The position numbers and the translations under genes were made by a program. A stretch of DNA of 32,000 nt from Mucisphaera calidilacus. Lineage in GTDB: Bacteria > Planctomycetota > Phycisphaerae > Phycisphaerales > Phycisphaeraceae. Below the pieces are notes generated by a model that saw only the letters and a program-made list of their open reading frames with translations, was not told the DNA's origin and did not search any database. The stretch spans positions 90,001 through 122,000 of the forward strand of contig NZ_CP036280.1 in the NCBI RefSeq assembly GCF_007748075.1, in the 5' to 3' direction. This document shows, one piece after another, positions 4,254-24,539 of the stretch; position 1 is the stretch's first letter; each line of letters opens with the position of its first letter.

Positions 4254-4571
4254 AGTGAACGTTAATCAGCGTTGCCGGTTTGACCGGATGTTTGCGAACT
4301 CGATATCGACGGAATCGGCCCCTCGCTGAGGTGGGGATTGGCGTGTACGTCCTGATCCCTCCGAGAGTTCGCCGATCCTTCGGCTGATGCACGTTCTGCC
4401 GCCTTCTCCGTGCTGGCGGTGCCCGATGGCGGAAGGTCAAGATAACAGAGATAGGCAGGCCTGAGGGTTTCTAACGCGCTTTCCATCTTTGCCGGTGGCA
4501 GGGCAAGGCGCGGATGGGGCGCTGCGTGGCGGTGAACCGGAATCAGAGATCAGCGAAACGGTGTCGTGGGA

Positions 4572-6065: not shown

Positions 6066-6352
6066 GCCTGTTGCTCCTGCTTGCTCAACGCCCTGGGTCG
6101 GGCGGACTTCCTGTGCGATGCCACGGTCCGGCTGTTCGCGTTGCGTGCGTCATCCTAATCAAAGGCCAGCCCCGCCGCATCCTGTGGCGGTGTGGGTCTC
6201 TATCCCATCGGCTCGATCGTTCACGGGCCGTGATGGGTACGCGACTTTCCCCGAAGAAGATCGGTCGGGCCGCTGTTGTCGGACGATGGATGGATTAGCG
6301 GACGTTGCCCGGCGTGTTTGATGGCGGTCGGCGGTAGCGGTATGAAGGGTTG

Positions 6353-7351
6353 ATGAAGACAACCATTATCGGCAACGGCGCGATGGCGACGGTCTGTGCG
6401 CTGATCCTCAGCCCGCGCTATCCGGTGCGGATGTGGGGGCCGAACGCCGAGGCGCTCGCCATGCTCGCCCGCGAGCGGGTCAACGAGCGCTACCTGCCGG
6501 GTGCGCGGCTGCCCGACGAGGTGGAGTTGACGGCCGATCCCGAGGAGGCCCTGGCGGGCTGCGAGCTCATCATCAACGCCATCCCGACGCAGTACATCCG
6601 GGCGACGTGGGAGCGGTTCGTGCCGCTGGTGGGGGCGGGTGTGCCGGTGGTTTCGGTCTCGAAGGGGATCGAGCAGCAGACGCTGCTCCGGCCGACGCAG
6701 ATCGTCCGCGACGTGCTGGGCGACCCGGCCCGCGTGGTGGCGTCGCTGTCGGGCCCGACGGTGGCGGAGGAGCTGGTGCACTGCCTGCCGGCGACGCTCT
6801 GCGCCGCTTCGGAGGAGGAGCCGTTCGCCGAGGCGTTGCAGGCGATGTTCTCGACGCACTGGCTGCGCACCTACACCAACACCGACCTGCTCGGCGTCGA
6901 GCTGGCGGGCGCCACCAAGAACGTCATCGCACTCGCGGCGGGGGCGATCGACGGCCTGCGCGCCGGGATCAACGCCAAGAGCGCCCTGCTCGCCCGCGGG
7001 CTGGCGGAGATCTCCCGCCTCGGCTTGGCCATGGGCGCCCGGCAGGAGACGTTCTTCGGGATCGCGGGCGTCGGCGACCTGGCGACGACCTGCTTCTCGC
7101 CTTCGGGGCGCAACCGGACCTGCGGCGAGATGCTCGGTCGGGGCCGGAAACTCGACGAGGTGCTCGAAGCGATCCCCGGCGTGGTCGAGGGCGTGCCGAC
7201 GACACGCGCGGTCGTGGCGCTGGCTCGGCAGCATGGCGTGGAGATGCCGCTGACGCAGGCGATCCACCGGGTGCTCTTCGAGGGCCTCGACCCGATCGAG
7301 GGGATTTCGTCGCTGATGTCCCGCGACCTCAAGGCCGAACGCGTCAACTGA
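6353..7351 (+). CDS. gpsA: NAD(P)H-dependent glycerol-3-phosphate dehydrogenase
   Basis: Colinear GpsA motifs: KTTIIGNGAMATVCALIL (dinucleotide fold), SVSKGIE, LSGPTVAEE, GATKNVIALAAGAIDGL, TTCFSPSGRNRTCGEMLGRG. The track start at 6350 is TTG, so I use the adjacent ATG at 6353. The exact start is uncertain by one codon. Confidence 0.9.
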   Translation: MKTTIIGNGAMATVCALILSPRYPVRMWGPNAEALAMLARERVNERYLPGARLPDEVELTADPEEALAGCELIINAIPTQYIRATWERFVPLVGAGVPVVSVSKGIEQQTLLRPTQIVRDVLGDPARVVASLSGPTVAEELVHCLPATLCAASEEEPFAEALQAMFSTHWLRTYTNTDLLGVELAGATKNVIALAAGAIDGLRAGINAKSALLARGLAEISRLGLAMGARQETFFGIAGVGDLATTCFSPSGRNRTCGEMLGRGRKLDEVLEAIPGVVEGVPTTRAVVALARQHGVEMPLTQAIHRVLFEGLDPIEGISSLMSRDLKAERVN

Positions 7352-7365
7352 GTTTTTGATGACGA

Positions 7366-10092
7366 TCAGGGGGCGGGCGTGAAGCCGGTGCCGTCGAGGG
7401 TGCCCTCCGGCTCGTCGAAGTCGATGCCGCCGTTGACCGTCGTTGCGCCGTTGCTGACCGAGGGCGTGGCGTTCTCGAGTTCGGTGTTGACGAAGGTGTT
7501 GCCGGTGCCGCTCAGGTCGACGGTGTTGCCGCTGGCGGTGTCGTAGAAGATGAAGTCGTTGTTGTCGTCGCGGTTGGTGCGGAAGATCGTGTTGTCGAAG
7601 CTGACGGTGGCGTTGCCGACGCTCAGGTGCGTGCCGTTGCCGGGCAGGTCGGCGGCCTCGAAGTTGTCGGCGAGGTCGAAGGTGAAGTTGGTGAAGGTGA
7701 TCGGCGTGACGTTGCCCGAGTCGGTGACGCGGACCATCGAGCCGGCGAGCTGGCCGAGGGTGCGGATGACCGAGCGGTCGTCGGGGTCGGTGGCGCCGGT
7801 GAAGGTCAGGTTCTCGGAGCCGTTGCGGATGACGATCACGCCGTCGAAGCTGTCGGGCGTGTTATTGATGGAGGTCACGCGGACGCCGTCGAAGTCGAGA
7901 TTGGCGAAGGTCGAGTCGTCGACGTTATCGAGGTCGAATATCTCGCCCAACGCATAATCGTTGGTGTCGTTGTCCGGGTCGGGGTCCGCGACCGATGCGC
8001 CGCCGACGAATCCGGTGGCGTAGAACTGATCGACGGTGAGGTCGGTGACGTTGGTGGCCTGGAGCAGGCGGTTGGCGGTGACGGGGGTGGCGGGCGGGGC
8101 ACCGTCTTCCGCGACAAAGTCGAGCAGGGCGCTGTTGGTCAGGGTGATGTCGGAGACGCCGGTCAGTTGGATGGCTGTGTCCGAGTCTGCTCCGCCACGG
8201 GTCCTGAGGCTGTCCACGGTGATGTCGCTGCTGCCGTTGGTGATCTCGAGGCCGTTATTGGCGAAATCGTAGATCAGCGGGTTGGTGAGCGTGACGCCGG
8301 AGGCGTTGTCGATCAGCACGGCCGCGGCGGCGTTGCCCGGACCGACGGTGATCAGGTCATCGATGTTGATGTTGCTGCTGGCGTTGGTGACGGCGACGGC
8401 GGAGCTGTCGAAGGTACGGATGACGGCTCCGTCCACGGTGACGTCGGAGGCGTTGTCGATGCTCAGCCCGACCGTGCTGCCGGTAGTGCCGTTGAGATCG
8501 AGCCGGTTGATCGTGACGGCCGAGGCCTGGTTCTCGATCACGATGCCTTGGTTGGGGAGCGAGCGGAGGTCGAGGTTCTCAAGCAGCACGTCCGACGTGG
8601 TGTTGCCGGTGATCCGGATGCCCGCGATCGTGCCGGAGCCGGCCTCGTCCTGCACGCCGAACGCGATGATGCTCACGCCGGTCGAGCCGTTGATGATCTG
8701 GACGCCATCCCCGGAGGGCCCGAAGATGGTCGTGTCAAACACACTGACGTTGTCGGCGTCGTCGATCACGATGCCGCTGCTGCCCTCGACCAGATACATT
8801 CTCTGGATCTCGGTGTCGTCGTTGGCGTTGATGATGTCGGTGAAGATGTCGTTTTGGCGGACGACACCCCGGAAAGCGGGGACGAAGTAAGTCACCGGGT
8901 TGTTGCCCGAGGCGTCGGTGATCTGTATGGCCGACCCGCCGCCGAGCAAGCTCTGTCCGGGGTTGAGGTTGAGCGACTGACCCGGCGCGAGTTCGTAGGG
9001 AATTAGTTGGTTCGCATCATTCCGACGACCCGCGAGGATGACGATCTCAGCGCCGGAGTCGATGGAGGCGACGAGGTCGCCGGAGGGATTCTGGAGCGTG
9101 CCGGTGCCGGTGGCGGCGGTGCCGCCATCACGGACGACGTCGATGGTGCCGAAGGGCGTGCCGCCGGTGCCGGGGATGGTCGCGGGCTCGGAGCTGACGA
9201 CCGCGGCGCGGGCGCCGGTGACGATGTCGATGTCGCGTTCGACGCGTCGGACCATGCGGTCGGGCTGCCAGTCGGGCAGGGGGGTGGTGACGCCGCCGGG
9301 CCTGCCGCCGAAGCCGAGCGGGAAGCGGATTCCGATGGTGAAGTAGGTGCGGCTGCCGCGGACGTCGTCCTCGGCCCAACGGACGCCTGTCGAGAGGGTC
9401 GAGTTGGGGAGGATGGCGTCGGTGTCGATGTTCCACTGGGCGCGGACCTGCGGCCCCGCGACGGTCTCGAAGCCCGAGTCGTCGAAGCGGAAATAGCCGG
9501 CGTAGATCCAGGCGTCGATCTCGCGGACGGGCGAGCGGACGCCGGCCTCGAGGTCGAAACCGGGGAGCGGTTTTTCGACCTGCTGGTTGGTGTTGTAGCT
9601 GAGCGTGCCGCCGAGGAGTTGGCCGCTGGCGAACGAGGGGCCGAAGCCTTTTTCGTCGTCCTCGGGCAGGTAGAGGTTACCGCGGAACTCGAAGTGCTCG
9701 AGCAGGGCCTCGGCGCCGAAGGTCAGCTGGTTGAAGCCGTTGTCGTTCCCGGAGATCAGGTGGTCGAAGTAGCCGTAGCCGCCGAGGATCACCTTGTCGC
9801 CCAGGAGTCGGCGATAGCCGACGCCGAGGTTGTATTCCTGCGAAGCGTCGTCGTCGTAGCGGAAGCGGAAGTCGGCGAAGACCAGCTGATCGCGCAGCTG
9901 GGTGAGCGGGACGAACAGGTCGCCCTGGCCGATATTGCGGCCGGTGCTGAATCGCCCCTCGATGTCGAGGATGAGGTCCCAGTAGAGCCGGTCGCTGACA
10001 ACCTGATCGTCCTGGGCGAGGGCCGGGCTGACCAGCGAGGTGGCGAGTCCGAGGCTCGCGAGACAGACGGCCATCGACCCGATTTGACGCAT
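7366..10092 (-). CDS. Inverse-autotransporter-like outer-membrane protein (N-terminal intimin/invasin-type beta-barrel, C-terminal parallel-beta-helix-like passenger)
   Basis: 908-aa ORF with a signal peptide MRQIGSMAVCLASLGLATSLVSPALA|QDD. Residues ~35-292 (nt ~9217-9990) read like the intimin/invasin beta-domain: LFVPLTQ..LVFADFRFRYDD..YNLGVGYRRLLGDKVILGGYGYFDH..NQLTFGAEALLEHFEFRGNLYLP, PLPGFDLEAGV, then a linker MVRRVERDIDIV comparable to the LVQRNNNIILEY-type plug helix. The remaining ~600 aa are Asn/Thr/Asp/Gly/Ser-rich short repeats (ASDVTVDGAVIRTF, NASSNINIDDLITV, NASGVTLTNPLIYDF, NGSSDITVDSLRT, VSDITLTNSALLDF) typical of PbH1/pectate-lyase-type beta-helices. Confidence 0.7.
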   Translation of the reverse strand: MRQIGSMAVCLASLGLATSLVSPALAQDDQVVSDRLYWDLILDIEGRFSTGRNIGQGDLFVPLTQLRDQLVFADFRFRYDDDASQEYNLGVGYRRLLGDKVILGGYGYFDHLISGNDNGFNQLTFGAEALLEHFEFRGNLYLPEDDEKGFGPSFASGQLLGGTLSYNTNQQVEKPLPGFDLEAGVRSPVREIDAWIYAGYFRFDDSGFETVAGPQVRAQWNIDTDAILPNSTLSTGVRWAEDDVRGSRTYFTIGIRFPLGFGGRPGGVTTPLPDWQPDRMVRRVERDIDIVTGARAAVVSSEPATIPGTGGTPFGTIDVVRDGGTAATGTGTLQNPSGDLVASIDSGAEIVILAGRRNDANQLIPYELAPGQSLNLNPGQSLLGGGSAIQITDASGNNPVTYFVPAFRGVVRQNDIFTDIINANDDTEIQRMYLVEGSSGIVIDDADNVSVFDTTIFGPSGDGVQIINGSTGVSIIAFGVQDEAGSGTIAGIRITGNTTSDVLLENLDLRSLPNQGIVIENQASAVTINRLDLNGTTGSTVGLSIDNASDVTVDGAVIRTFDSSAVAVTNASSNINIDDLITVGPGNAAAAVLIDNASGVTLTNPLIYDFANNGLEITNGSSDITVDSLRTRGGADSDTAIQLTGVSDITLTNSALLDFVAEDGAPPATPVTANRLLQATNVTDLTVDQFYATGFVGGASVADPDPDNDTNDYALGEIFDLDNVDDSTFANLDFDGVRVTSINNTPDSFDGVIVIRNGSENLTFTGATDPDDRSVIRTLGQLAGSMVRVTDSGNVTPITFTNFTFDLADNFEAADLPGNGTHLSVGNATVSFDNTIFRTNRDDNNDFIFYDTASGNTVDLSGTGNTFVNTELENATPSVSNGATTVNGGIDFDEPEGTLDGTGFTPAP

Positions 10093-12520: not shown

Positions 12521-13822
12521 TTACGAGGCGTAGCGGCGGATGATGAGCGTGTCGTTCTGCCCGCCGAAGCCGAAGGAGTTGCTCAGGCAGATGTTGACGT
12601 CGGTCCTGCGTGCCTCGTTGGGGACGTAGTCGAGGTCGCACTCGGGGTCGGGGTTGTGGAGGTTGATGGTGGGGGGCAGGACCTGGTCGCGGAGGGCGAG
12701 GACGCAGACGATGGCCTCGGTGGAGCCGGCGGCGGCGATGAGGTGGCCGAGCATGCTCTTGATGGAGCTGATGGGCACGTCCGGAGCGCGGTCGCCGAAC
12801 ACGGCCTTGACCGCCTTCGACTCGATGACGTCGTTCTCCTTGGTCGAGGTGCCGTGGGCCGAGATGTAGTCGATCTGATCGGTGGTGACGCCCGCGTTGC
12901 GCAGGGCGAGGCGCATGGCCTGCGCGGCGCCACGCCCGTCGGGATGAATGTCGGTGATGCGGTAGGCGTCGGCGGTGGAGCCGTAGCCGGCGATCTCGGC
13001 GAGGATCTCGGCGCCGCGTGCCCGGGCGTGTTCCTCGGTTTCGAGGATGAGGATGCCGCTGCCCTCGCCGATGACAAAGCCGTCGCGGTCACGGGAGAAG
13101 GGTCGCGATGCGGTGGCGGGGTCGTCGTTGCGGTTGGAGAGGGCGGTGAGCCGGTTGAAGCCCGTGACGCCGAGCGGGTGGATCATGGTGTGTGCGCCGC
13201 CGGTGATCATCACGTCGGCGTCGCCATGGCGGAGGATGTGCATCGCCTCGCCGATCGCCTGGGTCGATGCGGCGCAGGCGGTCAGGCAGTTGTAGGCCGG
13301 CCCGCGGGCGTCGAACTCCATGGCGAGGTGGGCGAGCGGCATGTTGGGCTCCTGCTCGATCTCGCCGTCGGGCGTGAGCAGCCTGCGTGCCGCCTCGATC
13401 CACTTGACGCCGTCCACCGCGCTCGCGTCGGCCTGCCAGCCGGCGAGGTTGGCCTCGACGTAGTGGTCGAAGTCGATCAGCCCCTCGCCCGAGCCGAGGT
13501 AGATGCCCAGGCGGTCGTGATCGAGTTTGCCCTGCTCGTCGTAGGCGTCGAGCTTCGCCGATCGCCAGGCCATGGTCGCGGCGCCGAGCGCGTAGCCCAC
13601 GTTACGTCCGGTGTTGGCGTGTGCCTCGGGGTGCTTGACGAACTCGTTGTGGTCGAAGTCGGTGACCTCCGCGGCGATGGAGGTGGGGTAGGTGGAGGCG
13701 TCAAACTGCTGGATGGGCCCGATGCCGCAGTCGCCCTGAATAAGGCGTTGCCAGACGCGCTCGATGTCGTGCCCGAGCGGCGTGACCCATCCGATGCCTG
13801 TAACGACGATCTTGTCGGCCAT
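12521..13822 (-). CDS. Beta-ketoacyl-ACP synthase (KAS II/FabF-like, catalytically complete)
   Basis: 433-aa ORF. Cys-His-His triad present: GPAYNCLTACAASTQAIGEA (Cys183, codon 13274-13276), ISAHGTSTKEND (His323), KSMLGHLIAAAG (His360), and the C-terminal NSFGFGGQN. It carries an extra ~30-aa segment (LIDFDHYVEANLAGWQADASAVDGVKWIEAARRLL) relative to what I recall of housekeeping FabF. Confidence 0.85.
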   Translation of the reverse strand: MADKIVVTGIGWVTPLGHDIERVWQRLIQGDCGIGPIQQFDASTYPTSIAAEVTDFDHNEFVKHPEAHANTGRNVGYALGAATMAWRSAKLDAYDEQGKLDHDRLGIYLGSGEGLIDFDHYVEANLAGWQADASAVDGVKWIEAARRLLTPDGEIEQEPNMPLAHLAMEFDARGPAYNCLTACAASTQAIGEAMHILRHGDADVMITGGAHTMIHPLGVTGFNRLTALSNRNDDPATASRPFSRDRDGFVIGEGSGILILETEEHARARGAEILAEIAGYGSTADAYRITDIHPDGRGAAQAMRLALRNAGVTTDQIDYISAHGTSTKENDVIESKAVKAVFGDRAPDVPISSIKSMLGHLIAAAGSTEAIVCVLALRDQVLPPTINLHNPDPECDLDYVPNEARRTDVNICLSNSFGFGGQNDTLIIRRYAS

Positions 13823-13843
13823 GGAGTTGCGTTCCGGTGGAGT

Positions 13844-15163
13844 TCAGGAGGCTTGACTGAGGACGATCGCGGCGTTCTGGCCGCCGACGCTCGACCCGCA
13901 CACGAGCGCGTGGCGGAGCGGCGTTTCCCGGGCCGGCGCGTTGCCTGAGATGCCCGGGAGGGGGTTGTTGCGGTTGACGATGGCGGGCACCTTCTGGTGC
14001 GCGAGCGCCACGGCGGCGATGGCGAGGTCGATGGCCCCGCTGCCGGCGAAGCACTCGCCCAGCAGCGCCTTGTGGCCGAGCACCGGCAGCCGCGCGAGAC
14101 GATCGCCAAAGACACGCCGAAGGGCCTCGGCCTCGGCCTGATCGAAAGCGGGCGTGCCGCAGGCACCGGGGACGATCAGGTCGATGTCATCCGCCACCAG
14201 GCCGGCGTCGGCGAGCGCGCGTTCGATGGCTCGCCGGTTGGCGCTGCCCCCGGGGTGCGGCTCGCGGTTGTGCTTGGCAGGATGCACCGTCTGCGAGGCG
14301 GCGAACCCGGTGATCCGCGCGTAGGCCGGTTTGTCGGTGCGCTGTTTGTAGTCGTCCTCGGCTTCGAGGATCAGGATCGCCCCGCCCTCGCCGACCACGG
14401 TGCCGGTCGCGTCGCGGTCCATCGGCCGGACGACCTCGTCGGGCGGCGTGCTGGAGGCGTCGGTCGTGAGCCTGAGATATTCCTGCCGGAGCATGCCCAG
14501 CGGGTTCACGCGTGACTCGGCCCCGCCGCAGAAGCACAGGTCGGCGTCGTCACGCTGGATCACCCTCAGCGACTCGCCCACGCTCAGCAGGCCGCTGGCC
14601 TGCGAGCAGGTGATGGTGTTCGACGGCCCGTGGGTGTCGTGGATGATCGTGACGTGGCAGGCGAGCATGTTGGGCAGGTACTTGAGCAGCCAGAGCGGGG
14701 TCAGCCGCTGCATCCCCTCGCGGCCCCACTGGTGCATGTCGAAGGTGCCCCCGTCGTCCACCGACTCGGCCATGGCCATGGTCAGCTCGTTGACGTCGGC
14801 GGCGATCAGGCCGGCGCCGATGTGCGCACCCATCCGGGCCGAGGCGTAGGAGCGCTCGTCCCCCTCGGCGGTGCCCTTGGTCTGGAGCCCCGCGTCGCGG
14901 GCGGCCAGGTCGGCGCAGGCGACGGCGAACTCGATGTCCCGTGCCATGACCTTGGTGGCCTTGCGGTAGGTCTTGGGCACAAAGTTGCGGACGCTGAAGT
15001 CGCTGACCTCCGCGCCGTAGGGGCACTTGAAGTCGGAGGCGTCGAAGGCGGAGACGGGCGCGATCGCCGAGGCCCCGGCGCAGGCCTGCTCCCAGAGTGC
15101 GTCGATGCCGAGGCCCAGCCCGCAAACCGGGCCGAGTCCGCTGATGACCACGGGTCGTGTCAT
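13844..15163 (-). CDS. Ketosynthase-fold protein lacking the catalytic triad (chain-length-factor / KS-beta-like partner)
   Basis: 439-aa ORF, 21 nt upstream of the KS gene on the same strand. An ungapped alignment is anchored on the shared GP...GE...DAD: GPSNTITCSQASGLLSVGESLRVIQRDDADL versus GPAYNCLTACAASTQAIGEAMHILRHGDADV. This puts Gln188 (codon 14600-14602, CAG) at the nucleophile Cys position. IVPGACGTPAFD versus ISAHGTSTKEND gives His to Gly. KALLGECFAGSG versus KSMLGHLIAAAG gives His to Glu. The C-terminal GSSVGGQN is retained. Confidence 0.75.
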   Translation of the reverse strand: MTRPVVISGLGPVCGLGLGIDALWEQACAGASAIAPVSAFDASDFKCPYGAEVSDFSVRNFVPKTYRKATKVMARDIEFAVACADLAARDAGLQTKGTAEGDERSYASARMGAHIGAGLIAADVNELTMAMAESVDDGGTFDMHQWGREGMQRLTPLWLLKYLPNMLACHVTIIHDTHGPSNTITCSQASGLLSVGESLRVIQRDDADLCFCGGAESRVNPLGMLRQEYLRLTTDASSTPPDEVVRPMDRDATGTVVGEGGAILILEAEDDYKQRTDKPAYARITGFAASQTVHPAKHNREPHPGGSANRRAIERALADAGLVADDIDLIVPGACGTPAFDQAEAEALRRVFGDRLARLPVLGHKALLGECFAGSGAIDLAIAAVALAHQKVPAIVNRNNPLPGISGNAPARETPLRHALVCGSSVGGQNAAIVLSQAS

Positions 15164-15329: not shown

Positions 15330-16478
15330 ATGCCGCAATCACCTCTTCGCACCCCCTGGGTCTCGGTCCTGACGCTGGCCCTGTCGCTGGGCATCACCGG
15401 CTGCCAGTCGGATTCGGGATCGTCCGACTCGATCGATGCCGCGCCCGCCGAGACGACGGAGGTCGCTGCCACGCAACCCGCCGAACCGTCGCGCGAGCAG
15501 AAGGTCGTCGAGGGCCGGCTGGGCATGCTGATGGAGGAGATCGAGCTGTGCGAGCAGCTCGGCCTGGACCCCGTCGAGATCGCGGCGCTCAACAAGCGTC
15601 CGCTCTACACCTTCAACGAGACCGAGGTGCACCGCTACCTGCAGTTCCTCCACGCGACGCAGCCCGACCTGCGCACCCGCGTCAAGACGCTCGCCCGCAA
15701 GAACCTCGGCCAGCCCTACGAGATCTACCTCCTCGGCGAGGCGCCGTTCGAGACCTACGACCCCCAGCCGCTCTACTGCCTGGACCGCAGCGACTGCGTG
15801 GTCTACGTCGAGCACATGCTCGCCATGGGCCTCGGCAGCGACTGGCCCAAGTTCTTCGGGCTGCTCCAGCGCATCCGGTACAACAGCGGGCAGATCGGCC
15901 TGGCGACCCGCAACCACTACTCCGAGGCCGACTGGGCGCCCAACAACAGCTGGCTCGTGACCGACATCTCCGAGCAGGTAGCGGGCGATGGCGTCGCCAC
16001 CTACCCCATGAAGGTCGACCGCGCGAGAATGCTCAAGCGCGTCGGCGGGCTCGAAGTGGCTATCCCGGTTGAGAGCCGTGTCGAGAGCTACGTGCCCTTC
16101 GAGGAAACCGTGCGTGCGCTGCCCGAGCTCCAGACAGGCGACCTCGCCTTCATCGTGCGCGGCACCGGACCCGAGAGCCTCTGGGTCGGGCACATGACCA
16201 TGGTCATCCGCACCGAGAACGACGCCATCCACCTGATCCACTCCACCCCGCCCGTGGTCAAGGAGGAGCCGATCACCGAGTACATCCGCCGATCGGTCGC
16301 CCAGATCCCCGACCGCGAGGCGGCGGGCAAGTCACGTTTCTACGGCTTCAAGTTCATGCGTCTCAACGAGGACGCGCTGGATCGGCTGGTGGAACTCGAC
16401 GGCCCCGACGCGCCGGTGCTCTCGCTGCCCTCGGGCGCCCGCCTGCAGATGTCCCCGCAGGCGAAGATCGCCCGCTGA
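15330..16478 (+). CDS. Lipoprotein, DUF1460-like (AmiA-like amidase / cysteine-peptidase-like fold)
   Basis: 382-aa ORF with GGAAGGA 7 nt upstream. Lipobox LSLGITGC (Cys25). Motifs resemble DUF1460 as I recall it: LGQPYEIYLLGE, LYCLDRSDCVVYVEHMLAMGL, LLQRIRYNSGQIGLATRNHYSEADW, GDLAFIVRG...LWVGHMTMVI. The family call is made from memory of the profile, not from a search. Confidence 0.6.
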   Translation: MPQSPLRTPWVSVLTLALSLGITGCQSDSGSSDSIDAAPAETTEVAATQPAEPSREQKVVEGRLGMLMEEIELCEQLGLDPVEIAALNKRPLYTFNETEVHRYLQFLHATQPDLRTRVKTLARKNLGQPYEIYLLGEAPFETYDPQPLYCLDRSDCVVYVEHMLAMGLGSDWPKFFGLLQRIRYNSGQIGLATRNHYSEADWAPNNSWLVTDISEQVAGDGVATYPMKVDRARMLKRVGGLEVAIPVESRVESYVPFEETVRALPELQTGDLAFIVRGTGPESLWVGHMTMVIRTENDAIHLIHSTPPVVKEEPITEYIRRSVAQIPDREAAGKSRFYGFKFMRLNEDALDRLVELDGPDAPVLSLPSGARLQMSPQAKIAR

Positions 16479-16479
16479 G

Positions 16480-17304
16480 TCAGCGCTGGCCCGCGTCGCC
16501 GAAGCCGTTCCAGTAGCCGTTGTCGAGGGCCTCGTCGTTGTCGAAGTCGTCGAGTGAGACGGCGGAGACCGATTCGGCGTGGCCGTCGGCGAAGGTGAAC
16601 TCGCTGGTGCTGCCGCCGCGGTCAACAGGCGTCGAACGCGTGTTGGCGTAGTAGCCCGAGGGCTTGCCGCTGCCACGCTCCGAGGGGAGCGGCGGGTCAA
16701 TGACATACTGACCCTCGGTGCCGCCGTCGGCACCCTCCGTGTCGCCGATCACCACGGTCTGCGAGGCCGCGTAGACCGTCTCGACAGCCCGGCGGAACTC
16801 AACGCCGTTGCGGGCGTTGCCCAGGTACTGATAGTTGTAGCCATAGCCGCCCCAGCGGTTGTAATCGGCGTCGGGGTCGCCCTGACCGGAGTAGTCGCGC
16901 TGGGGGTTCTGGGCCGCCTTGAGAGCATCGACGTTGCTTGCCTCGTGCCACCACGTCTTGGCGAGGATCGATTCGTCGATGTCGATGTGCGGGTTGATGA
17001 AGACGTCCGTGCTCTGGATGTAGGGGTAGAGGTAGTCGGCCCAGCGCGGCTTGGCGCCGTTGGCGGGCCGGTTGCTGCTGGGGATCGTCGACGAGTGCCA
17101 GGGGAAGCGGCCGTCCTGCTCCACGAGGAAGCTGGTGAGGGCGATTGACCCGATCTGGCGGGTGTTGGAGAGGCTCTGGGCGTCCTTGGCGAGGGTCCGG
17201 GCGCTGCCGAGGGCCGGCAGGAGGATGCCGATGAGCAGGGCGATGATCGAGATCACGACAAGCAGTTCGATCAGGGTGAAGGCGCGGTTGCGGGCTGCGG
17301 GCAT
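16480..17304 (-). CDS. Prepilin-type N-terminal cleavage/methylation domain protein (pseudopilin, H-X9-DG / DUF1559-like)
   Basis: An internal ATG at 17302-17304, with GGAAAGGA upstream, gives MPAARNRA|FTLIELLVVISIIALLIGILLPAL, the class III signal plus hydrophobic helix. The C-terminal FTFADGHAESV matches the H-X9-DG idiom. The track start at 17391 is TTG and adds 29 implausible residues. Confidence 0.8.
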   Translation of the reverse strand: MPAARNRAFTLIELLVVISIIALLIGILLPALGSARTLAKDAQSLSNTRQIGSIALTSFLVEQDGRFPWHSSTIPSSNRPANGAKPRWADYLYPYIQSTDVFINPHIDIDESILAKTWWHEASNVDALKAAQNPQRDYSGQGDPDADYNRWGGYGYNYQYLGNARNGVEFRRAVETVYAASQTVVIGDTEGADGGTEGQYVIDPPLPSERGSGKPSGYYANTRSTPVDRGGSTSEFTFADGHAESVSAVSLDDFDNDEALDNGYWNGFGDAGQR

Positions 17305-17476: not shown

Positions 17477-18316
17477 ATGCTCACCCACCGCATCATCCCC
17501 TGCCTCGATGTGAAGTCCGGGCGTGTCGTCAAAGGCGTCAACTTCGTCGACCTCGTCGACGCGGGCGACCCGGTCCAGATCGCCCGCGCTTACGACGAGC
17601 AGGGAGCCGACGAACTCGTCTTTCTCGATATCACCGCCAGCCACGAGGGCCGCGGGATCATCCACGACGTCGTCCGGCAGGTCGCCGAGCAGTGCTTCAT
17701 GCCCTTTACCGTCGGCGGGGGCATCCGCACCATTGACGACGTGACCGCGCTCATCCAGGCCGGTGCCGAGAAGGTGAGTATCAACACCGCCGCCGTCGTG
17801 ACGCCGGAGATCGTGAGCCAGACCGCCCGACGCTTCGGCACCTGCGCGACCGTCGTCAACATCGACCCCAAACGCGTGCCCATCGACGATTACCTCAGCC
17901 GAGCGGGTAAGGACGCCCCGGTCACCGAGTCGACCGAGCGGCCCGGGACCTGTTTCGAAGTGCACACCCATGGCGGGCGCACGCCCGTCGGGCTGGATGC
18001 GTTGGACTGGGCCCAACGCGTCGTCGAACTCGGCGCCGGCGAGATCGTCCTGACCTCGATGGATGGCGACGGCACCCAGACCGGTTATGACATCGAGATC
18101 ACCCGGCTGGTCGCTCAGGCCGTGAGCGTGCCCGTGGTCGCCTCAGGGGGCGCGGGGAGTCCCGAGCACATCGCCGACGTGCTCGAGGAGGGCTGTGCCG
18201 ATGCGGCTTTGGCCGCGAGCATCTTCCACTTCGGGACCTACACGATCGCCGAGACCAAGGAATATCTGGCCCGGCGCGGCCTGCCGGTGCGTACAGTCGT
18301 TCCCCTCGCCTCTTGA
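17477..18316 (+). CDS. hisF: Imidazole glycerol phosphate synthase, cyclase subunit
   Basis: 279-aa ORF: [110 protein letters not shown] ~15-aa insertion precedes FEVHTHGGR. Confidence 0.92.
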
Positions 18317-18437: not shown

Positions 18438-19640
18438 GTGACCCAATCGTCCCCGCATTCCAGTTCGAGTGGCAGCTCCCACGGCACCTCCTTCGGCACG
18501 TCCTTCGGCGACCCGGTGCCCGTCGACCACGTCGACCAGAAGCGTTCGCTCAGCGACACGCCGCTCAAGAAGTTTTTCAAGGCGGCGATCCAGTTCGAGT
18601 CGTCCGACGTCATCATGCGCGCCGGTCAGGTCCCCAAGCTGCGCGTCAAGGGGGCGCTCAAGGCACTTGACCACCCGGCGATCCCCGAGACCCAGTTCGA
18701 ACGCTGGGTCGAGCAGGGCCTCTCCGAGGCGCAGTTCCAGTACTACGCCGAGCACGGCTCGATCGACCTCGGCATCGACGTCGAGACAGGCGGCAAGGCC
18801 CACCGCTTCCGCGTCAACGTCTTCCGGACCCGCGGACGCTCCGCCATCGCCGCACGCCGCGTCAGCGCCGAGATCCTCGATTTCTCCCAGCTCCACCTCC
18901 CCCCGGTGATGGAGAAGATCTGCCAGGTCCATCAGGGCCTCGTGCTGCTCTGCGGCGTCACCGGCTCGGGCAAGTCGACCACCATCGCCTCGATGCTCGA
19001 CCACATCGCCCAGGAACGCTACTGCCACATCCTCACGATCGAAGACCCCATCGAGTACATCTTCGCCGACGAAGACCGCAAGGCCTCGATCAACCAGCGT
19101 GAGGTCGGCATCGACGTGCCCGACTTCCCGTATGCCCTGCGTGCCATGGTTCGCGAGAACCCCGACGTCGTGCTCATCGGCGAGATGCGTGACCGCGAGA
19201 CGTTCGAGGCAGCGCTCCAGGCCGCCGAGACCGGCCACCTCGTCTTCGGCACGATCCACGCGTCGTCCGCGACCCAGGCCTTCGGGCGTATCTACGACCT
19301 CTTCCCGCAGGAAGAGCGTGAGGCGATTCGCGGCCTGCTCGCCTTCCAGCTCCAGGCGTTCGTCTACCAGAAGCTGCTGCCGACGATTAAGCCAGAGATG
19401 CAGCGCGTCCCCGCCGTCGAGATCCTGCTCCAGACCCCGCCCGTGCGCAAGTACATCCTTGAGGGACGCGAGGACGAGTTGCAGGAGGTCATCAAGGACA
19501 GCCGCGAGGACGGCATGCAGACCTTCACCGACAGCCTTGTTGACCTGGTGGAGACCAATTACATTCACCCCCGCGTGGCGCAGAGTGCAGCGCCATCGGC
19601 CGAGGAGCTCAAGATGCGGCTCCGCGGCATCACGAACTGA
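18438..19640 (+). CDS. pilT: PilT/PilU-family type IV pilus retraction-type ATPase (catalytic motifs intact)
   Basis: Walker A LLCGVTGSGKSTT, Asp box ILTIEDPIEY, Walker B DVVLIGEMRDRET, His box TGHLVFGTIHASS, C-terminal PVRKYILEGRE...GMQTF. The track start at 18195 (GTG) overlaps hisF by 122 nt. The first canonical in-frame start after the hisF stop is GTG 18438-18440, with GAGG 7 nt upstream. That start gives 400 aa with a Ser/Gly-rich N-terminal extension (SSPHSSSSGSSHGTSFGTSFG). The start is uncertain. Confidence 0.85.
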   Translation: MTQSSPHSSSSGSSHGTSFGTSFGDPVPVDHVDQKRSLSDTPLKKFFKAAIQFESSDVIMRAGQVPKLRVKGALKALDHPAIPETQFERWVEQGLSEAQFQYYAEHGSIDLGIDVETGGKAHRFRVNVFRTRGRSAIAARRVSAEILDFSQLHLPPVMEKICQVHQGLVLLCGVTGSGKSTTIASMLDHIAQERYCHILTIEDPIEYIFADEDRKASINQREVGIDVPDFPYALRAMVRENPDVVLIGEMRDRETFEAALQAAETGHLVFGTIHASSATQAFGRIYDLFPQEEREAIRGLLAFQLQAFVYQKLLPTIKPEMQRVPAVEILLQTPPVRKYILEGREDELQEVIKDSREDGMQTFTDSLVDLVETNYIHPRVAQSAAPSAEELKMRLRGITN

Positions 19641-19706
19641 CCGCGTTTTTCCCTACGGACCCACGAAGCCCGCACCCGGGCTTGCAGGACCCAACCCGAG
19701 AGAAGC

Positions 19707-21347
19707 ATGACCCCCGCGACGCTGGCCCAGGCCGAGACCGTCTTCCTGCTGAGTTGGTTCAAACCCATTGTGGTGCTCGCCGTGCTGATCGGCTGGGCAC
19801 GCATGGTCTCGACCTTCGACAAGGACCTCGAATACTTCCACCTCCCGCGGATGCTCTGGAACGGCGGGCACATGCTCGCGGCGGTCGCCGGCTTCGGGGC
19901 GATCTTCCTGATCCCCATCTTCTTCGTCGGCCTGCCCATCGGCCTGCTGCTGATGTTCGGATCGCTCTACGCCTACGCCAACTTCCGCAACCACCGCGTC
20001 CCCTTCGACGCACGCTGGGACCTCTCCTTCAACGGCCTCAAGGAGCAGATCACCGCCTGGCAGAAGGATCAGGCCGAGAAGCACGCCAGCCTCCGCATCG
20101 AGGGCAGCGACGGCGAGCACCTGCAGGTGCCCGTCGGCAACGACCCCCAGGTCGAGAGCCACGCCGTCCTCGCCGAGGTCCTCAACTTCGCCATCCCCCG
20201 CAACGCCGACCGCATCGAGATGACCATCGACAAGGAACTGGGCAAGGTCACCGCCCGGGTCGACGGCGTGCTCTACCCCCAGCCCGACATCGAGTCCAAG
20301 AAGGCGATGGGCGTGCTCGAGTACGTCAAGGGCGCCGCCGGCATGGACCTCTCCAGCCACCGCAAACGCGAGCAGGGGCGTCTGGGCGTCGACCTCGGCG
20401 AGTTCGGCACCCACCGCCTGGCCCTCGAAACGGCCGGGTCGACACGCGGCGTGCGCATGATCATGGACGTCAACCCCGCCAAGCAGACCAACATCCCCCT
20501 CAACCAGATCGGCCTCACCGAGACCCAGCACGACCAGATCCTCAAACTCGTCTCTGAGCCCGGCGGGACCGTCCTCATCTCCGCGCCGCCCCAGCAGGGC
20601 CTGACCACCACGCTCTACAGCATCCTGCAGGCCCACGACCCCTACACCTCCAGCGTCATCACCGTCGAAAGGCAGAAGCCCTTCGAGGTTGAGGGCGTCA
20701 ACCACCAGGAGTTCGGCGACGAGGCCTCACCCGACAAGATCAACGAGCGGCTCAAGGTGCTCCTGCGCTCCGACCCCAACGTCCTCATGATCAGCGAGGT
20801 CTTCGACGACAGCACGCCCAAGCTCATGGCACCGCTCGCCGAGGAGTGCCGTTTCTACGTCCCCATGAAGGCCGACAGCGGGTTCGAGGCGGCCAAGCGC
20901 TGGATGCGCATGGTCGGCGACCCCAAGCTCGCCACCGCCAACATCACCGCCGTGCTCCACCAGCGCCTCGTGCGCCGCCTGTGCAGCACCTGCCGGACCG
21001 CCTACAAGCCCGACCCCGCGGCTCTCAAGAAGCTCAACATCCCCGCCGACAAGGTCGACAAGCTCTACCAGGCCTCCGGACAGGTCGAGGTCAAGGGCAA
21101 GGCACGGACCTGCCCCGCCTGCATGGGCATCGGCTACCGCGGACGCATCGGCGTCTTCGAACTCATGATCTACGACGACACCGCCCGCTCGCTGCTGCGG
21201 CAGGGCGACTTCGACAACCTGCGCACCCACCTCCGCAAGCAGAAACTGCAGTACCTCCAGGAAGCGGCCCTCGCCAAGGTCGTCAGCGGAGAGACGGACA
21301 TCAAGGAAATCACGCGGGTACTGGGCGGATCCAAGACCGCCTCCTGA
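19707..21347 (+). CDS. Membrane-anchored GspE/PilB-family paralogue with degenerate nucleotide-binding motifs (predicted pseudo-ATPase)
   Basis: 546-aa ORF. Residues ~11-93 form three hydrophobic helices: TVFLLSWFKPIVVLAVLIGWARMV, GGHMLAAVAGFGAIFLIPIFFV, GLPIGLLLMFGSLYAYANF. The N2-like domain is present: NADRIEMTIDKELGKVTARVDGVLYP...REQGRLGV. At the Walker A position the sequence reads ISAPPQQGLTTTLYS (nt 20583-20612) instead of GPTGSGKTTTLY. The Asp box reads ITVERQKPFE, the Walker B region DPNVLMISEVFD, and the His-box region ECRFYVPMKADS. The tetracysteine motif is retained: CSTC...CPACMGIGYRGRIGVFE (nt 20982-21122). Confidence 0.75.
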   Translation: MTPATLAQAETVFLLSWFKPIVVLAVLIGWARMVSTFDKDLEYFHLPRMLWNGGHMLAAVAGFGAIFLIPIFFVGLPIGLLLMFGSLYAYANFRNHRVPFDARWDLSFNGLKEQITAWQKDQAEKHASLRIEGSDGEHLQVPVGNDPQVESHAVLAEVLNFAIPRNADRIEMTIDKELGKVTARVDGVLYPQPDIESKKAMGVLEYVKGAAGMDLSSHRKREQGRLGVDLGEFGTHRLALETAGSTRGVRMIMDVNPAKQTNIPLNQIGLTETQHDQILKLVSEPGGTVLISAPPQQGLTTTLYSILQAHDPYTSSVITVERQKPFEVEGVNHQEFGDEASPDKINERLKVLLRSDPNVLMISEVFDDSTPKLMAPLAEECRFYVPMKADSGFEAAKRWMRMVGDPKLATANITAVLHQRLVRRLCSTCRTAYKPDPAALKKLNIPADKVDKLYQASGQVEVKGKARTCPACMGIGYRGRIGVFELMIYDDTARSLLRQGDFDNLRTHLRKQKLQYLQEAALAKVVSGETDIKEITRVLGGSKTAS

Positions 21348-21372
21348 CACCCGACCGGCCGGAGCCAGCCCC

Positions 21373-23046
21373 ATGTATGTGAGTATCGCTGTCATCCTTT
21401 ACCTGCTGCTGATGGCCACCCTGTGGTCTACTCAGGGGCTCTTCTCGGCCTTCATCCACCTCGTGATCGTGCTGGTCGCCGGGACCATCGCCTTCTCGCT
21501 GTGGGAACCGATCTCCGTGGGCCTGATCATGCCCTGGCTGCCCCACATGGCCTGGTCGCTCGGCCTGCTCATCCCCTTCGCGGTCCTGCTCATCGGTCTG
21601 CGCACCATGGCCGACACCGTCGTGCCCAGCAACATCCGCTTGCCCGGCATGGTCAACACGATCCTTGGCGGCATGCTTGGCGTCATTTCCGGCTGGCTCA
21701 CCGCGGGTATCGCCATCATCGGTTTCGGCTTCATGCCCCTCTCCGCCGACCTCTTCGGCTACCAGCCCTACGTCATCAACGCCGACGGAACCACCAGCGC
21801 CAACAGCGACCTCTGGGTCGAAGTCGACACATTGACCAACGACGTCTTCCAGATGCTCTCCAACGGCGCAATGGCCTCGGCCACGCCCATGGCGGTCTAC
21901 CAGCCCGACCTCCGCGAGCAGAGCAGCGTCGTCCGCCTGAAGCTCGACGAGTACGCCTCCATGGTCGCCGGCCCCGAGGCCGTCACCGTCGAGAACGTCG
22001 TGGTGCAGGACCTCCCGACCGAGGAACTGCCCGCCGCGTCCCTGCAGGCCCTGCCCGTGCTCGCCGAGGGCGATCAGCAACTGGTCATCGTCGATCTCAA
22101 GATCGTCAAGAGCAAGGGCACGTTCGACGGCGACTCGACGCTCCGCCTGCCACCGACCCACGTGCGCCTGCTCGCCGGCCCGCCCGGACAGTCGGACTAC
22201 GTCCCCCCGATCGCCTTCTCACGCCTGACCGACCCGAGGACCGGCGAACGCGTTCTCGTCCCGATCGACAACGACCGCGTCTCCGCCGACGGCGCTCAGC
22301 AGGAGCAGGTCATCGCCTGGGCCTTCGTGATCCCCGCGCGGGACGAGGCCCGCTTCATCATGGTCCGCAACATCCGCCTGCCGCTGAACAACTCCGAGGC
22401 CGACGCGGTCCAGGCCGCCTCCCTGCTGGGCATGCCCGAGAACCCCGAACCCGAGGTGACCGAACCCGCCGGCCCGCAGACCGTCACGGAGGCGGGCGAC
22501 CGCCAGGGCATCCGCACCGGGCACGTCGCCGACCTGGGCGAAGTCACCGCCAGCCTGCCCCGACCCATCAGCCGAAACGCGGCCACCGGGCTCGACGTCC
22601 GACGCGTCGACGAGGAGTACATGATCTTCTCGGGCAACGGCAGCGTGAAGAAGCCCCAAGGCGTCCAGCTCTCGCGACGCACCCGCGTCACCAGCTTCTA
22701 CGTGCCCGACCACATGGGCATGGTCCGCGTCCGTCTCGACGACGACGGCGCCAGCTCGCTCCTCGGACGCGCCCGCGCCTCCGCCGCGTCGCTGCAGGGC
22801 ATCTGGCTCGTCGACGACCGTGGCACGCAGTGGTTCCCCCACGCCTACGTCCTCAGCTCAGGCGACGGCACCCAGAACATCAAGTGCGACCCCGAGGTCA
22901 ACATCCGCTCGGCACGCGAGCTGCCCCTCAACGAGCTCGGCGACGACGACGAACTCTACCTCTACTTCCAGGTCCCCAAGGGCACGGAGATCGTCGAGTA
23001 CCACGTTGGCCGAACCATCCAGGACCTGCGCCTGAACGTCGAGTGA
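21373..23046 (+). CDS. Polytopic membrane protein with CvpA-like N-terminal domain and ~430-aa C-terminal soluble region
   Basis: 557-aa ORF, 25 nt after the preceding gene, with GGAG upstream. There are four hydrophobic helices, and the pre-TM4 motif RLPGMVNTILGGMLGVISGWLTAGIAI is comparable to E. coli CvpA SGTDRVLGVCFGALRGVLIVAAIL. The C-terminal region has no motif I recognise with certainty. Confidence 0.55.
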   Translation: MYVSIAVILYLLLMATLWSTQGLFSAFIHLVIVLVAGTIAFSLWEPISVGLIMPWLPHMAWSLGLLIPFAVLLIGLRTMADTVVPSNIRLPGMVNTILGGMLGVISGWLTAGIAIIGFGFMPLSADLFGYQPYVINADGTTSANSDLWVEVDTLTNDVFQMLSNGAMASATPMAVYQPDLREQSSVVRLKLDEYASMVAGPEAVTVENVVVQDLPTEELPAASLQALPVLAEGDQQLVIVDLKIVKSKGTFDGDSTLRLPPTHVRLLAGPPGQSDYVPPIAFSRLTDPRTGERVLVPIDNDRVSADGAQQEQVIAWAFVIPARDEARFIMVRNIRLPLNNSEADAVQAASLLGMPENPEPEVTEPAGPQTVTEAGDRQGIRTGHVADLGEVTASLPRPISRNAATGLDVRRVDEEYMIFSGNGSVKKPQGVQLSRRTRVTSFYVPDHMGMVRVRLDDDGASSLLGRARASAASLQGIWLVDDRGTQWFPHAYVLSSGDGTQNIKCDPEVNIRSARELPLNELGDDDELYLYFQVPKGTEIVEYHVGRTIQDLRLNVE

Positions 23047-23053
23047 TGCCGAC

Positions 23054-24400
23054 GTGAACCGAACGCCTACCCCCTTGTCACGGCGACGCGTCACCGTCAT
23101 GGGACTCGGTCGTTTCGGCGGCGGCGTCGGCGTCACGCGCTTCCTCGCCGAACACGACGCCCGCATCCTCCTCACCGACACCCTTGATCAAGACCGGCTC
23201 GGCCCGAGCCTCGATTCCCTCCGCGACCTCATCGACGACGGCCGCATCGAGCTGCGCCTGGGCGAACACCGCGAAGACGATTTTACGTCCGCCGACCTCG
23301 TCGTCGTCAACCCCGCCGTCAACCCCGCGACCAACGCCTACACCCGTGCCGCCTCGAACGCCGGCGTCCCGCTGACCTCCGAGATCCGGCTGCTCATCGA
23401 ACGCCTGCCCACGCCTCACGTACTCGGCATCACCGGCAGCGCCGGCAAGTCGACCACAACCGTCATGCTCCATCACGCACTCGTCGACGCGCTCGGCGAC
23501 GAACGCGTCTGGCTCGGCGGGAACCTCGGCGGATCGCTGCTCATGGACCTGCCCCGCATCCAGCCCGACCACCGCGTTGTTCTCGAACTCTCCTCCTTCA
23601 TGCTCGACGGCCTCCGCCACGACCGCTGGTCGCCCCGCGTCGCCGTCGTCACCAACCTGCACCCCAATCACCTCGACTGGCACGGCAGCTTCGAGCACTA
23701 CGCCGACAGCAAGCAGCAGATCCTCGAACACCAGCAACCCCACGACGCCGCCGTCCTCGGCAGCTCGTGCGCCGACCGGCTTCGCCCGCGCACGCCGCGT
23801 GTGGTCTGGTCCGACACCTCGTGGGTCGAATCGCAGTGGCTGCCGCCACTCCGCGTCCTTGGCGAGCACAACCGCGCCAATGCCCGGCTTGCCATCGAGG
23901 CCGCCGGCCAGACCGGCTTCGACCGCAACGCCGCCGCCGCGTCACTCGCCACCTTCAACGGGCTGCCGCACCGACTGCGTGTCATCGGTGAGCGCGAGGG
24001 CGTGCGCTTCGTTGACGACTCCAAGTCCACCACGCCCGAGGCCGCGATCCTCGCCATCGACGCCTGCCGATCCGACTTCCCCGACGCTCGTCTGCACGTG
24101 ATCCTCGGCGGATACGACAAGGGCGCCGACCTCGCCCCGCTCGCCCGCCACGCCGCCGCGCACACCCACGCCATCTACGCCATCGGCCAGACCGGGCCCT
24201 CCATCCTCGATGCGGCACAGGGTCAGGATGCCGAGTGCGTCGACGCCCAAACCGTCGCTGACGCCGTCACCCATGCGCTGGGGCACACTACGCCGGGTGA
24301 CGTTGTTTTACTCTCGCCGGGTTGCGCTTCGTGGGATCAGTTCACCAACTACGAGCAACGCGGCAGGGCCTTTGCCGAGGCCGCCGGCTGCGCGCAGTAA
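23054..24400 (+). CDS. murD: UDP-N-acetylmuramoyl-L-alanine--D-glutamate ligase
   Basis: 448-aa ORF with a GTG start 7 nt after the previous stop. Motifs: VTVMGLGRFGGGVGVTRFL, LGITGSAGKSTT, GGNLGGSLL, VLELSSFML, TNLHPNHLDWHGSFEHYADSK, GEHNRANA, FNGLPHRLRVIGE..VRFVDDSKSTTPEA, ILGGYDKG, LLSPGCASWDQFTNYEQRGRAF. Confidence 0.9.
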   Translation: MNRTPTPLSRRRVTVMGLGRFGGGVGVTRFLAEHDARILLTDTLDQDRLGPSLDSLRDLIDDGRIELRLGEHREDDFTSADLVVVNPAVNPATNAYTRAASNAGVPLTSEIRLLIERLPTPHVLGITGSAGKSTTTVMLHHALVDALGDERVWLGGNLGGSLLMDLPRIQPDHRVVLELSSFMLDGLRHDRWSPRVAVVTNLHPNHLDWHGSFEHYADSKQQILEHQQPHDAAVLGSSCADRLRPRTPRVVWSDTSWVESQWLPPLRVLGEHNRANARLAIEAAGQTGFDRNAAAASLATFNGLPHRLRVIGEREGVRFVDDSKSTTPEAAILAIDACRSDFPDARLHVILGGYDKGADLAPLARHAAAHTHAIYAIGQTGPSILDAAQGQDAECVDAQTVADAVTHALGHTTPGDVVLLSPGCASWDQFTNYEQRGRAFAEAAGCAQ

Positions 24401-24423: not shown

Positions 24424-24539
24424 CTCGGAGGAGAGAATCACGATGTCCACTATGAGTACGCAAAGCGGCAGGGCGGGTTCACGATTCGGGATCGTTTCTC
24501 GATCTTTTTTTTGCCCATCTTCACAGCCGCTGAGCGCAT

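Follow-up and report, generated by a model that had tools for sequence, protein, structure and literature searches.

The subject of this analysis is a group of three consecutive genes, which we call the triad, on the forward (+) strand of contig NZ_CP036280.1 of Mucisphaera calidilacus, a planctomycete of the class Phycisphaerae, within a stretch of 32,000 nucleotides (nt) at positions 90,001 to 122,000 (here called the window and numbered from its first letter). The triad consists of pilT (gene 1, 18438 to 19640, with a GTG start), a gene for a membrane-anchored GspE/PilB-like protein (gene 2, 19707 to 21347) and a gene for a CvpA-like protein (gene 3, 21373 to 23046). The gaps of 66 and 25 nt between these same-strand genes, and of 7 nt to the following murD, had been given in a first-pass annotation of this DNA and are exact in both the map of open reading frames (ORFs) and the junction sequences. 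Motors of the PilT/PilB class are understood almost only as drivers of pilin fibers that act through PilC/GspF platforms. The triad differs in that its PilB-type ring has an anchor of its own, in that catalysis has repeatedly been lost from a protein that is nevertheless conserved, and in that it is genetically bound to a CvpA-type protein instead of a platform. By staying together throughout the Planctomycetota, this uncharacterised set of genes suggests a new membrane machine made from type IV pilus parts. We found no description of such an architecture, nor of a link between CvpA and secretion ATPases, in the literature.

Gene 1 codes for a typical member of the PilT/PilU family, scoring 375.4 bits with the TIGR01420 model (cutoff, 319.1) and aligning end to end with the PilT of Aquifex (2ewv; E = 2.5e-79). 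All the catalytic motifs had been predicted to be present, and comparison with 2ewv shows the four boxes to be intact: Walker A, GVTGSGKST (18954 to 18980); the Asp box, LTIEDPIEY (19032 to 19058); Walker B, NPDVVLIGEMRD (19158 to 19193); and the His box, TGHLVFGTIHAS (19230 to 19265), all on the + strand. Further downstream (19440 to 19463, +), PVRKYILE takes the place of the AIRNLIRE motif, with three of the eight residues matching (R, I, and E). From these motifs, we can predict that gene 1 codes for a catalytically competent hexameric ATPase of the PilT/PilU family. Of 42 linked PilT orthologues, all 42 have an unaltered Walker A. The triad PilTs of other classes are 44 to 48% identical to that of the window, while the PilTs of conventional GspE-PilT-GspE operons are 34 to 39% identical to it, so the PilTs of the triad, closer to one another than to those of the conventional operons, appear to be a dedicated paralogue.

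The product of gene 2 is 100% identical to a M. calidilacus protein annotated as a GspE/PulE family protein. It matches PF00437 with 142 bits and stays below the equivalog level for both GspE (172 bits versus 630, TIGR02533) and PilB (149 versus 676, TIGR02538), as does a catalytically intact orthologue from the Gemmataceae (408 and 391 bits, respectively). Its AlphaFold2 (AF2) model (pLDDT 81) superimposes on PilB, PilF and GspE (EpsE) with Foldseek TM-scores of 0.84 to 0.86 (E ~ 1e-32), and the family profile aligns residues 144 to 540 with residues 114 to 499 of EpsE, covering the N2E and CTE domains with the Zn motif (PDB profile alignment). The N1E domain, which binds GspL, is replaced by three transmembrane (TM) helices, as indicated by hydropathy, by the AF2 model and by the start of the profile alignment at residue 144. 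This anchor covers residues 18 to 95 (19758 to 19991, +), with AF2 helices at 18 to 38, 48 to 68 and 72 to 95. Residues 1 to 143 gave no Pfam match, even at E ≤ 5, and contain neither an N1E nor an MshEN domain. The cytoplasmic loop of the anchor is conserved (family consensus, LDKDAxFYYLxRxxWN) and TM3 is followed by a (Y/F)RNxxVP motif (19983 to 20003, +). Lys and Arg residues are concentrated in the TM1-TM2 loop and after TM3, a distribution that suggests an N-out topology with the ATPase domain in the cytoplasm.

The first-pass annotation had placed this protein in the secretion ATPase superfamily as a member that had lost the P-loop Lys and the His box and carried three N-terminal TM helices, and all of this is borne out. 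Walker A is degenerate (APPQQGLTTT instead of the canonical GPTGSGKTTT; 20583 to 20612, +), with the Lys changed to Leu and the first Gly to Ala. The Asp box (20658 to 20696, +) is degenerate as well, Walker B (DPNVLMISEVFD; 20772 to 20807, +) is partly retained, keeping the Asp and the following Glu, and both His residues are gone from the His box (EECRFYVPMKADS; 20841 to 20879, +). A tetracysteine Zn-binding motif of the CM type (CSTC...CPAC; 20982 to 21122, +) is present, its residues C426, C429, C469 and C472 being invariant in two alignments, A1 and A2. On the basis of these motifs, gene 2 is predicted to be catalytically degenerate in the lineage of Mucisphaera.

In the AF2 model of the gene 3 product (mean pLDDT 71), four N-terminal TM helices, all within residues 2 to 119, are followed by a disordered linker and two beta-rich domains. 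The helices form a CvpA-type domain (21373 to 21732, +), in which the conserved TM3-TM4 loop, predicted to be cytoplasmic, (RTMADTVVPSNIRLPG; 21601 to 21648, +) holds the invariant residues R77, D81 and N87. The beta-rich domains (residues 204 to 340 and 386 to 556; 21982 to 23040, +) are predicted to be periplasmic. The AF2 helices and the positive-inside rule together predict a protein that crosses the inner membrane four times and has its C terminus in the periplasm, and the predicted topologies of the two membrane proteins of the triad put the conserved loops of both in the cytoplasm. With 19.2 bits, gene 3 falls below the gathering threshold of PF02674 (29.3), which is passed by its orthologues in loci L004 and L013 (31 bits); six of eleven close homologues have a precomputed PF02674 match. 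The C-terminal region gave no Pfam match, even at E ≤ 5, and no Foldseek match in the PDB at E ≤ 1e-3. Word-indexed searches with gene 3, even with a profile, returned 11 proteins, while an exhaustive profile search revealed a large family of long gene 3 proteins, with 805 cluster representatives at E ≤ 1e-30. The protein had been described at first as polytopic with a large C-terminal region that looks non-cytoplasmic. The predictions agree with this in the window, but only proteins of the Phycisphaerae type have the large extension; those of other groups mostly have about 190 to 250 amino acids (aa), with longer ones in L009 (385 aa) and L020 (497 aa).

The CvpA of Escherichia coli has been predicted to be a four-pass protein with a variable periplasmic C terminus; its function is unknown, it is genetically tied to envelope stress and lipopolysaccharide (LPS) transport, and the family is widespread across bacterial phyla (bioRxiv 10.1101/2020.09.25.314492). 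The gene 3 product shares with CvpA (PF02674) the four-pass N-terminal domain, the variable and predicted periplasmic C terminus, an invariant Asp and several invariant Gly residues. It differs in its sub-threshold score and in about 430 extra residues with the two beta-rich domains, and it is genetically tied to secretion-type ATPases, a tie that we did not find in the literature on CvpA.

We followed the triad through other genomes in two ways, by searching with gene 2 in one genome per species and by anchoring on gene 3 in metagenome contigs, the latter giving 80 loci. Full-length gene 2 orthologues came from Planctomycetota only. In the Phycisphaerae (L001 to L008 and L012), the order is (hisF-)pilT-gene 2-gene 3(-murD) with short gaps, L006 being without an adjacent pilT. 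In the Pirellulales (L009 and L013), the Gemmataceae (L010 and L011) and unclassified Planctomycetota (L020 and L021), a CvpA-like gene comes after the pair of pilT and gene 2. A GspE-like gene lies directly upstream of gene 3 in 74 of the 74 metagenome loci with at least 400 nt of upstream sequence, and PilT precedes in every evaluable gene 3-anchored locus except L082. The first-pass annotation had considered that the three genes might not be syntenic in relatives, or that homologues might always be embedded in type II secretion system (T2SS) or type IV pilus (T4P) loci. Neither was found: genes 2 and 3 keep their synteny throughout the 74 evaluable loci, and L009 alone adjoins a pilB-pilC-pilin cluster. 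Recurrence in dozens of independent genomes and contigs is, by this comparison, far beyond chance, and the gene order points to a triad that is ancient and, as far as sampled, restricted to Planctomycetota. The flanking genes vary by lineage (hisF/murD, accB/accC, rplI/rpsF, guaB and gatA/gatB), so the triad alone is kept together; except for L009, no fourth gene family and no T4P or T2SS partner recurs near it. The hisF gene lies directly upstream of pilT in L001 to L005, L008, L010, L011, L013, L014, L020, L021 and L072 but not in most metagenome loci, and appears to be context, a frequent neighbor in many but not all lineages.

This conservation bears on the simplest alternative, namely, that the three genes are mere neighbors, with PilT serving pili, the GspE paralogue being a decaying duplicate and the CvpA-like protein an ordinary housekeeping membrane protein. 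Genes may stay in the same order without acting together, hisF too is often found alongside with no obvious functional tie, and CvpA is found across the bacterial phyla anyway. However, order and tight spacing are kept across classes while the flanks all change, the dead protein is full length and strongly conserved in hundreds of lineages, and loss of the anchor goes with loss of the CvpA-like gene, all of which makes mere neighborhood very improbable.

In particular, gene 2 does not look like a gene in decay. The degenerate proteins have 64 invariant columns in alignment A1 at 40 to 50% identity, and gene 2 is 38 to 47% identical to its orthologues, close to the 43 to 50% of murD in the same genomes. 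Such figures indicate a dead ATPase under purifying selection and, given this strong conservation, we can assume that gene 2 codes for a functional pseudo-enzyme. On account of this conservation, we rejected a decaying pseudogene.

In the Gemmataceae and two other planctomycete lineages, the anchored protein has kept its Walker A, Walker B and His boxes intact; L010, L011, L020 and L021 combine the anchor with canonical GPTG(A/S)GK(S/T)TT, DPDVIxVGEIRD and GHxVFTTLHAN motifs. Degenerate orthologues occur in the Phycisphaerae and in L009, L013, L014 and L072. Among the metagenome orthologues, the Walker A Lys is absent from 64 of 64, with R, L, M, T, A, I, V, G or S in its place, and the His box is absent from the same number. 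The Lys position is also variable among the sequences P0001 to P0120, where the Lys is kept in one subclade that has neither the catalytic Glu nor the His box. N-terminal TM segments were exclusive to the triad orthologues among 92 GspE-like sequences, and hhalign shows the anchor of the Phycisphaerae type to be homologous to that of the Planctomycetia type (98.7%; E = 3.4e-16), which indicates a common origin of the anchor in the catalytically intact and degenerate forms. By this distribution, the dead state is lineage specific and derived and, as anchored orthologues with intact boxes exist, the protein probably began as a membrane-anchored motor and not as a pure dock.

Some loci depart from the usual composition. 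In L014 (Planctomycetaceae) and L072 (Pirellulaceae), hisF-pilT is followed by soluble, degenerate GspE-like proteins without an anchor (two of them in tandem in L072), and there is no CvpA-like gene. The anchor and the CvpA-like gene are thus missing together, with the linkage to PilT kept. The soluble variant is also the one present in Planctopirus limnophila. A conserved DUF4190-like protein with two TM segments is found in the place of the CvpA-like gene; L013 holds both CvpA-like and DUF4190-like genes. The coordinates of these variant modules are L072:6424-10133, L014:7881-10165 and L013:10114-11058. The opposite case is that of L002 and L082, which represent the same contig of one Phycisphaerae metagenome-assembled genome (MAG). 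Here, pilT is reduced to residues 27 to 72 and 326 to 400 next to intact genes 2 and 3 and an intact murD, which could be either a natural triad without PilT or an assembly artefact (the remnants lie between hisF and the GspE-like gene, at L002:3752-4389, equal to L082:3667-4304). L006 likewise has intact genes 2 and 3 and no adjacent pilT. As the GspE-like gene keeps PilT without CvpA (L014 and L072) and CvpA without PilT (L002/L082 and L006), it appears to be the hub of the linkage. In L093 (2018 to 4079), pilT and gene 2 are separated by an insertion that codes for a D12-class adenine methyltransferase and a SacI-like restriction endonuclease. An unannotated ORF of 162 aa is found between pilT and gene 2 in L085, and about 1 kb of sequence other than pilT lies upstream of gene 2 in L084.

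The main rival explanation, which we consider somewhat unlikely, takes the triad for a sub-module, accessory or regulatory, that serves a conventional machine (a type IV pilus or a T2SS-like system) with its genes elsewhere. In that case, PilT would be the retraction motor, the anchored GspE-like protein would hold it near PilC/GspF or compete with PilB, and the CvpA-like protein would modulate the process. The match of PilT to a type IVa family model (TIGR01420) is in line with this, and other bacteria, too, often have pilT apart from pilBCD. The window itself agrees with the first-pass annotation in having no known partner machinery nearby: Pfam and NCBIfam scans of its large ORFs found no T2SSF/PilC (PF00482), PilMNO/GspLM, secretin or prepilin peptidase. 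The divergent pilin-like gene noted earlier, 1.1 kb upstream of the triad (16480 to 17304, -), is real, coding for a protein with an N_methyl domain, the prepilin N-terminal methylation motif and, toward the C terminus, an FADGH motif; we take this protein to resemble the abundant planctomycete DUF1559/H-X9-DG type. Its proximity speaks for the accessory role, but the gene shows no conserved synteny with the triad in other genomes.

A connection is also suggested by L009, a low-GC Pirellulales MAG in which pilB (MshEN and T2SSE domains), pilC (T2SSF), an unknown gene and a pilin gene (L009:92-5093, -) lie divergently 1.7 kb upstream of the triad, whose upstream neighbor is not hisF in this case. 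However, this is the one locus with adjacent conventional genes among the genome loci examined and about 74 metagenome loci. Planctomycetes also carry conventional GspE-PilT-GspE(-GspF) operons to which a triad could be accessory. We found the GspE-PilT-GspE arrangement in L015, L018, L028, L051, L054, L061, L074 and L080, which belong to Planctomycetota, Omnitrophota and Opitutaceae. Its counterpart in Planctopirus limnophila would seem to be Plim_0410-0407, within the operon Plim_0410-0401 that is reported as essential (PMC10632474). Against an accessory role, these operons already hold a distant PilT paralogue of their own (34 to 39% identity, as given above), and catalytically intact anchored versions exist, whereas a pure regulator needs no active site. 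In a transcriptome of Rhodopirellula baltica, pilT RB12773 and pilB RB12774, which may belong to either kind of system, were co-induced by salt. A possible origin of the triad as a duplicate of the PilT-GspE2-GspF part of the conventional operons was examined with neighbor-joining (NJ) trees, in which, without usable support values, the anchored proteins branch apart from the two clades of conventional GspE. A defense system was rejected, as the PADLOC models gave only weak P-loop matches for PilT and matched neither gene 2 nor gene 3.

The other function that can be read from the neighborhood is that of the cell envelope, with a PilT-powered triad acting on peptidoglycan, its periplasmic CvpA extension contacting the wall or the outer membrane, and a tie to murD. 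The murD gene (23054 to 24400, +; GTG start, with an alternative ATG at 23099; TIGR01087, 340 bits) follows the triad in L001 to L005, L081 to L088 and others, with no terminator-like site in between in the window. An AmiA-like amidase-family gene (15330 to 16478; Pfam match) is encoded upstream, and the ties of E. coli CvpA to envelope stress and LPS transport (bioRxiv 10.1101/2020.09.25.314492) point in the same direction. However, murD does not follow in most loci, its linkage being limited, by our comparison, to the closest Phycisphaerae subclade; the amidase-like gene is not conserved nearby, and the periplasmic domains have no recognizable wall-binding family or fold. An action on the wall is, in our estimate, quite improbable. 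As for transcription, hisF (17477 to 18316, +; PF00977, 268 bits; the cyclase subunit of imidazole glycerol phosphate synthase) ends 121 nt before pilT, and a consensus scan of the + strand found no terminator-like site from there to the end of murD. The first such site downstream of hisF is a hairpin with a T-run at 24486 to 24506 (+; consensus scan only), which is compatible with one transcript that ends after murD, itself possibly co-transcribed. A sigma-70 promoter scan gave no match, the sigma-70 consensus being uninformative for this phylum, and an Rfam scan of the window found no RNA element.

Because of the gene linkage, the co-variation, the predicted topology and what is known of the families, our preferred reading, held at a little short of an even chance, is that the three genes code for one inner-membrane complex formed by an anchored GspE-like hub, a PilT motor and a CvpA-like periplasmic transducer. 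With the division of labor and direction of force that we propose, the middle protein would be a PilB/GspE-type ring ATPase with its own three-helix anchor and, as this anchor replaces the N1 domain, the ring would sit permanently at the membrane. In the Phycisphaerae, where the catalytic site has decayed, the ring could be a non-hydrolyzing hub, stator or adaptor. On the cytoplasmic side, this dead ring would recruit the active PilT hexamer, then the only motor, and its partner within the membrane would be the four-helix CvpA-like protein, through whose beta-rich C-terminal region conformational work, or else a signal, would reach the periplasm. For the Gemmataceae and others with an intact anchored protein, the complex would contain two motors working against each other, like PilB and PilT of type IV pili. 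The first-pass annotation had proposed that the pseudo-ATPase docks or regulates PilT and couples it to the CvpA-like protein. A hub of this kind is in line with the gene linkage, and the three genes form a conserved unit instead of a piece of a conventional T2SS or T4P locus, but the dead state is derived and the ancestral protein was probably a motor and not a pure dock.

Several points weigh against such a complex. The CvpA-like protein has short cytoplasmic loops only and nothing like the helical-bundle domains of PilC/GspF that contact the ATPases. As L013, L014 and L072 cluster together in the NJ trees, one event may account for the joint absence of anchor and CvpA-like gene. The linkage of PilT looks looser than that between genes 2 and 3, given the cases of L002/L082, L006 and L093. 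The adjacency seen in L009 is compatible with a triad that serves a conventional machine, and the complex as such is inferred from sequence and linkage.

Among the known systems closest to the proposed complex is the PilB-PilT-PilC set of type IVa pili (pilB-pilT-pilC in Myxococcus and pilB1-pilT1-pilC in cyanobacteria), in which adjacent PilB/GspE-type and PilT-type ATPases are also followed by a polytopic membrane protein. The folds match, for PilT along with the catalytic boxes, and in the triad of the Gemmataceae both ATPases appear to be active. However, the membrane protein of the triad is a four-TM CvpA-type protein and not PilC/GspF (no PF00482), its own three-TM anchor replaces the soluble N-terminal domains of PilB in a protein that is catalytically dead here, and no pilin, peptidase, PilMNO or secretin travels along. 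The GspE-GspL pair of the T2SS also resembles gene 2, as the N2E and CTE core with the Zn motif aligns (EpsE 114 to 499) and the ring needs a membrane tether in both. The tether of the T2SS is, however, a separate protein, GspL, bound by N1E, while that of gene 2 is the fused three-helix anchor, N1E being absent.

The concept of an active motor of the PilT/VirB11 class that acts with a non-hydrolyzing partner and a polytopic membrane protein is one that the proposed complex would share with the archaellum (FlaI-FlaH-FlaJ) and with the Tad system and its TadZ. FlaH is RecA/KaiC-like and TadZ ParA/MinD-like, whereas the inactive partner in the triad is a membrane-embedded paralogue of PilB/GspE. 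The PilT-PilU tandem is similar in that PilT is followed by a second member of the family, and PilU is said to be an accessory ATPase that depends on PilT, as the second protein of the triad perhaps does. However, PilU is a soluble and active PilT paralogue, while the second gene of the triad is of the PilB/GspE type, anchored and, here, inactive.

If the three proteins do form one complex, it would be a new architecture among the ATPases of type IV filaments. Its active and dead ring versions would provide a natural experiment on how pseudo-ATPases scaffold active motors, and CvpA, conserved across bacterial phyla, would have its first concrete set of partners. There is a modest chance that the triad is a distinct kind of machine. 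We can go further and imagine a self-contained, pilin-independent inner-membrane machine specific to Planctomycetota, in which the CvpA-family protein replaces the PilC/GspF platform and PilT drives the whole through a membrane-embedded, PilB-derived ring. We consider this stronger version unlikely, but it would give the widespread and functionally obscure CvpA family its first mechanistic context and PilT a function other than pilus retraction, perhaps in the unusual envelope or the membrane dynamics of planctomycetes. In any case, the triad is a candidate for planctomycete-specific envelope biology.

The rest of the window contains various other genes. A group on the - strand (2172 to 10092) codes for an exosortase (EpsH and DUF3485), a Wza-like polysaccharide exporter (Poly_export and SLBB), an unannotated ORF of 348 aa and a 908-aa protein with an inverse-autotransporter beta-domain and a beta-helix, and may be a PEP-CTERM/exopolysaccharide locus. 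Between 14000 and 18000, the GC skew of the + strand turns from positive to negative, with a cumulative maximum near 17 to 18 kb, and the predominant gene orientation changes from the - to the + strand at the same flip. As the skew seems to track the coding strand, it need not mark a replication landmark. Other domain matches among the large ORFs include a chemoreceptor, HtpX, TauE and sucA/sucB. Last, two beta-ketoacyl synthases of 433 and 439 aa are encoded in tandem at 12521 to 15163 on the - strand, the second being a much weaker match to the family.

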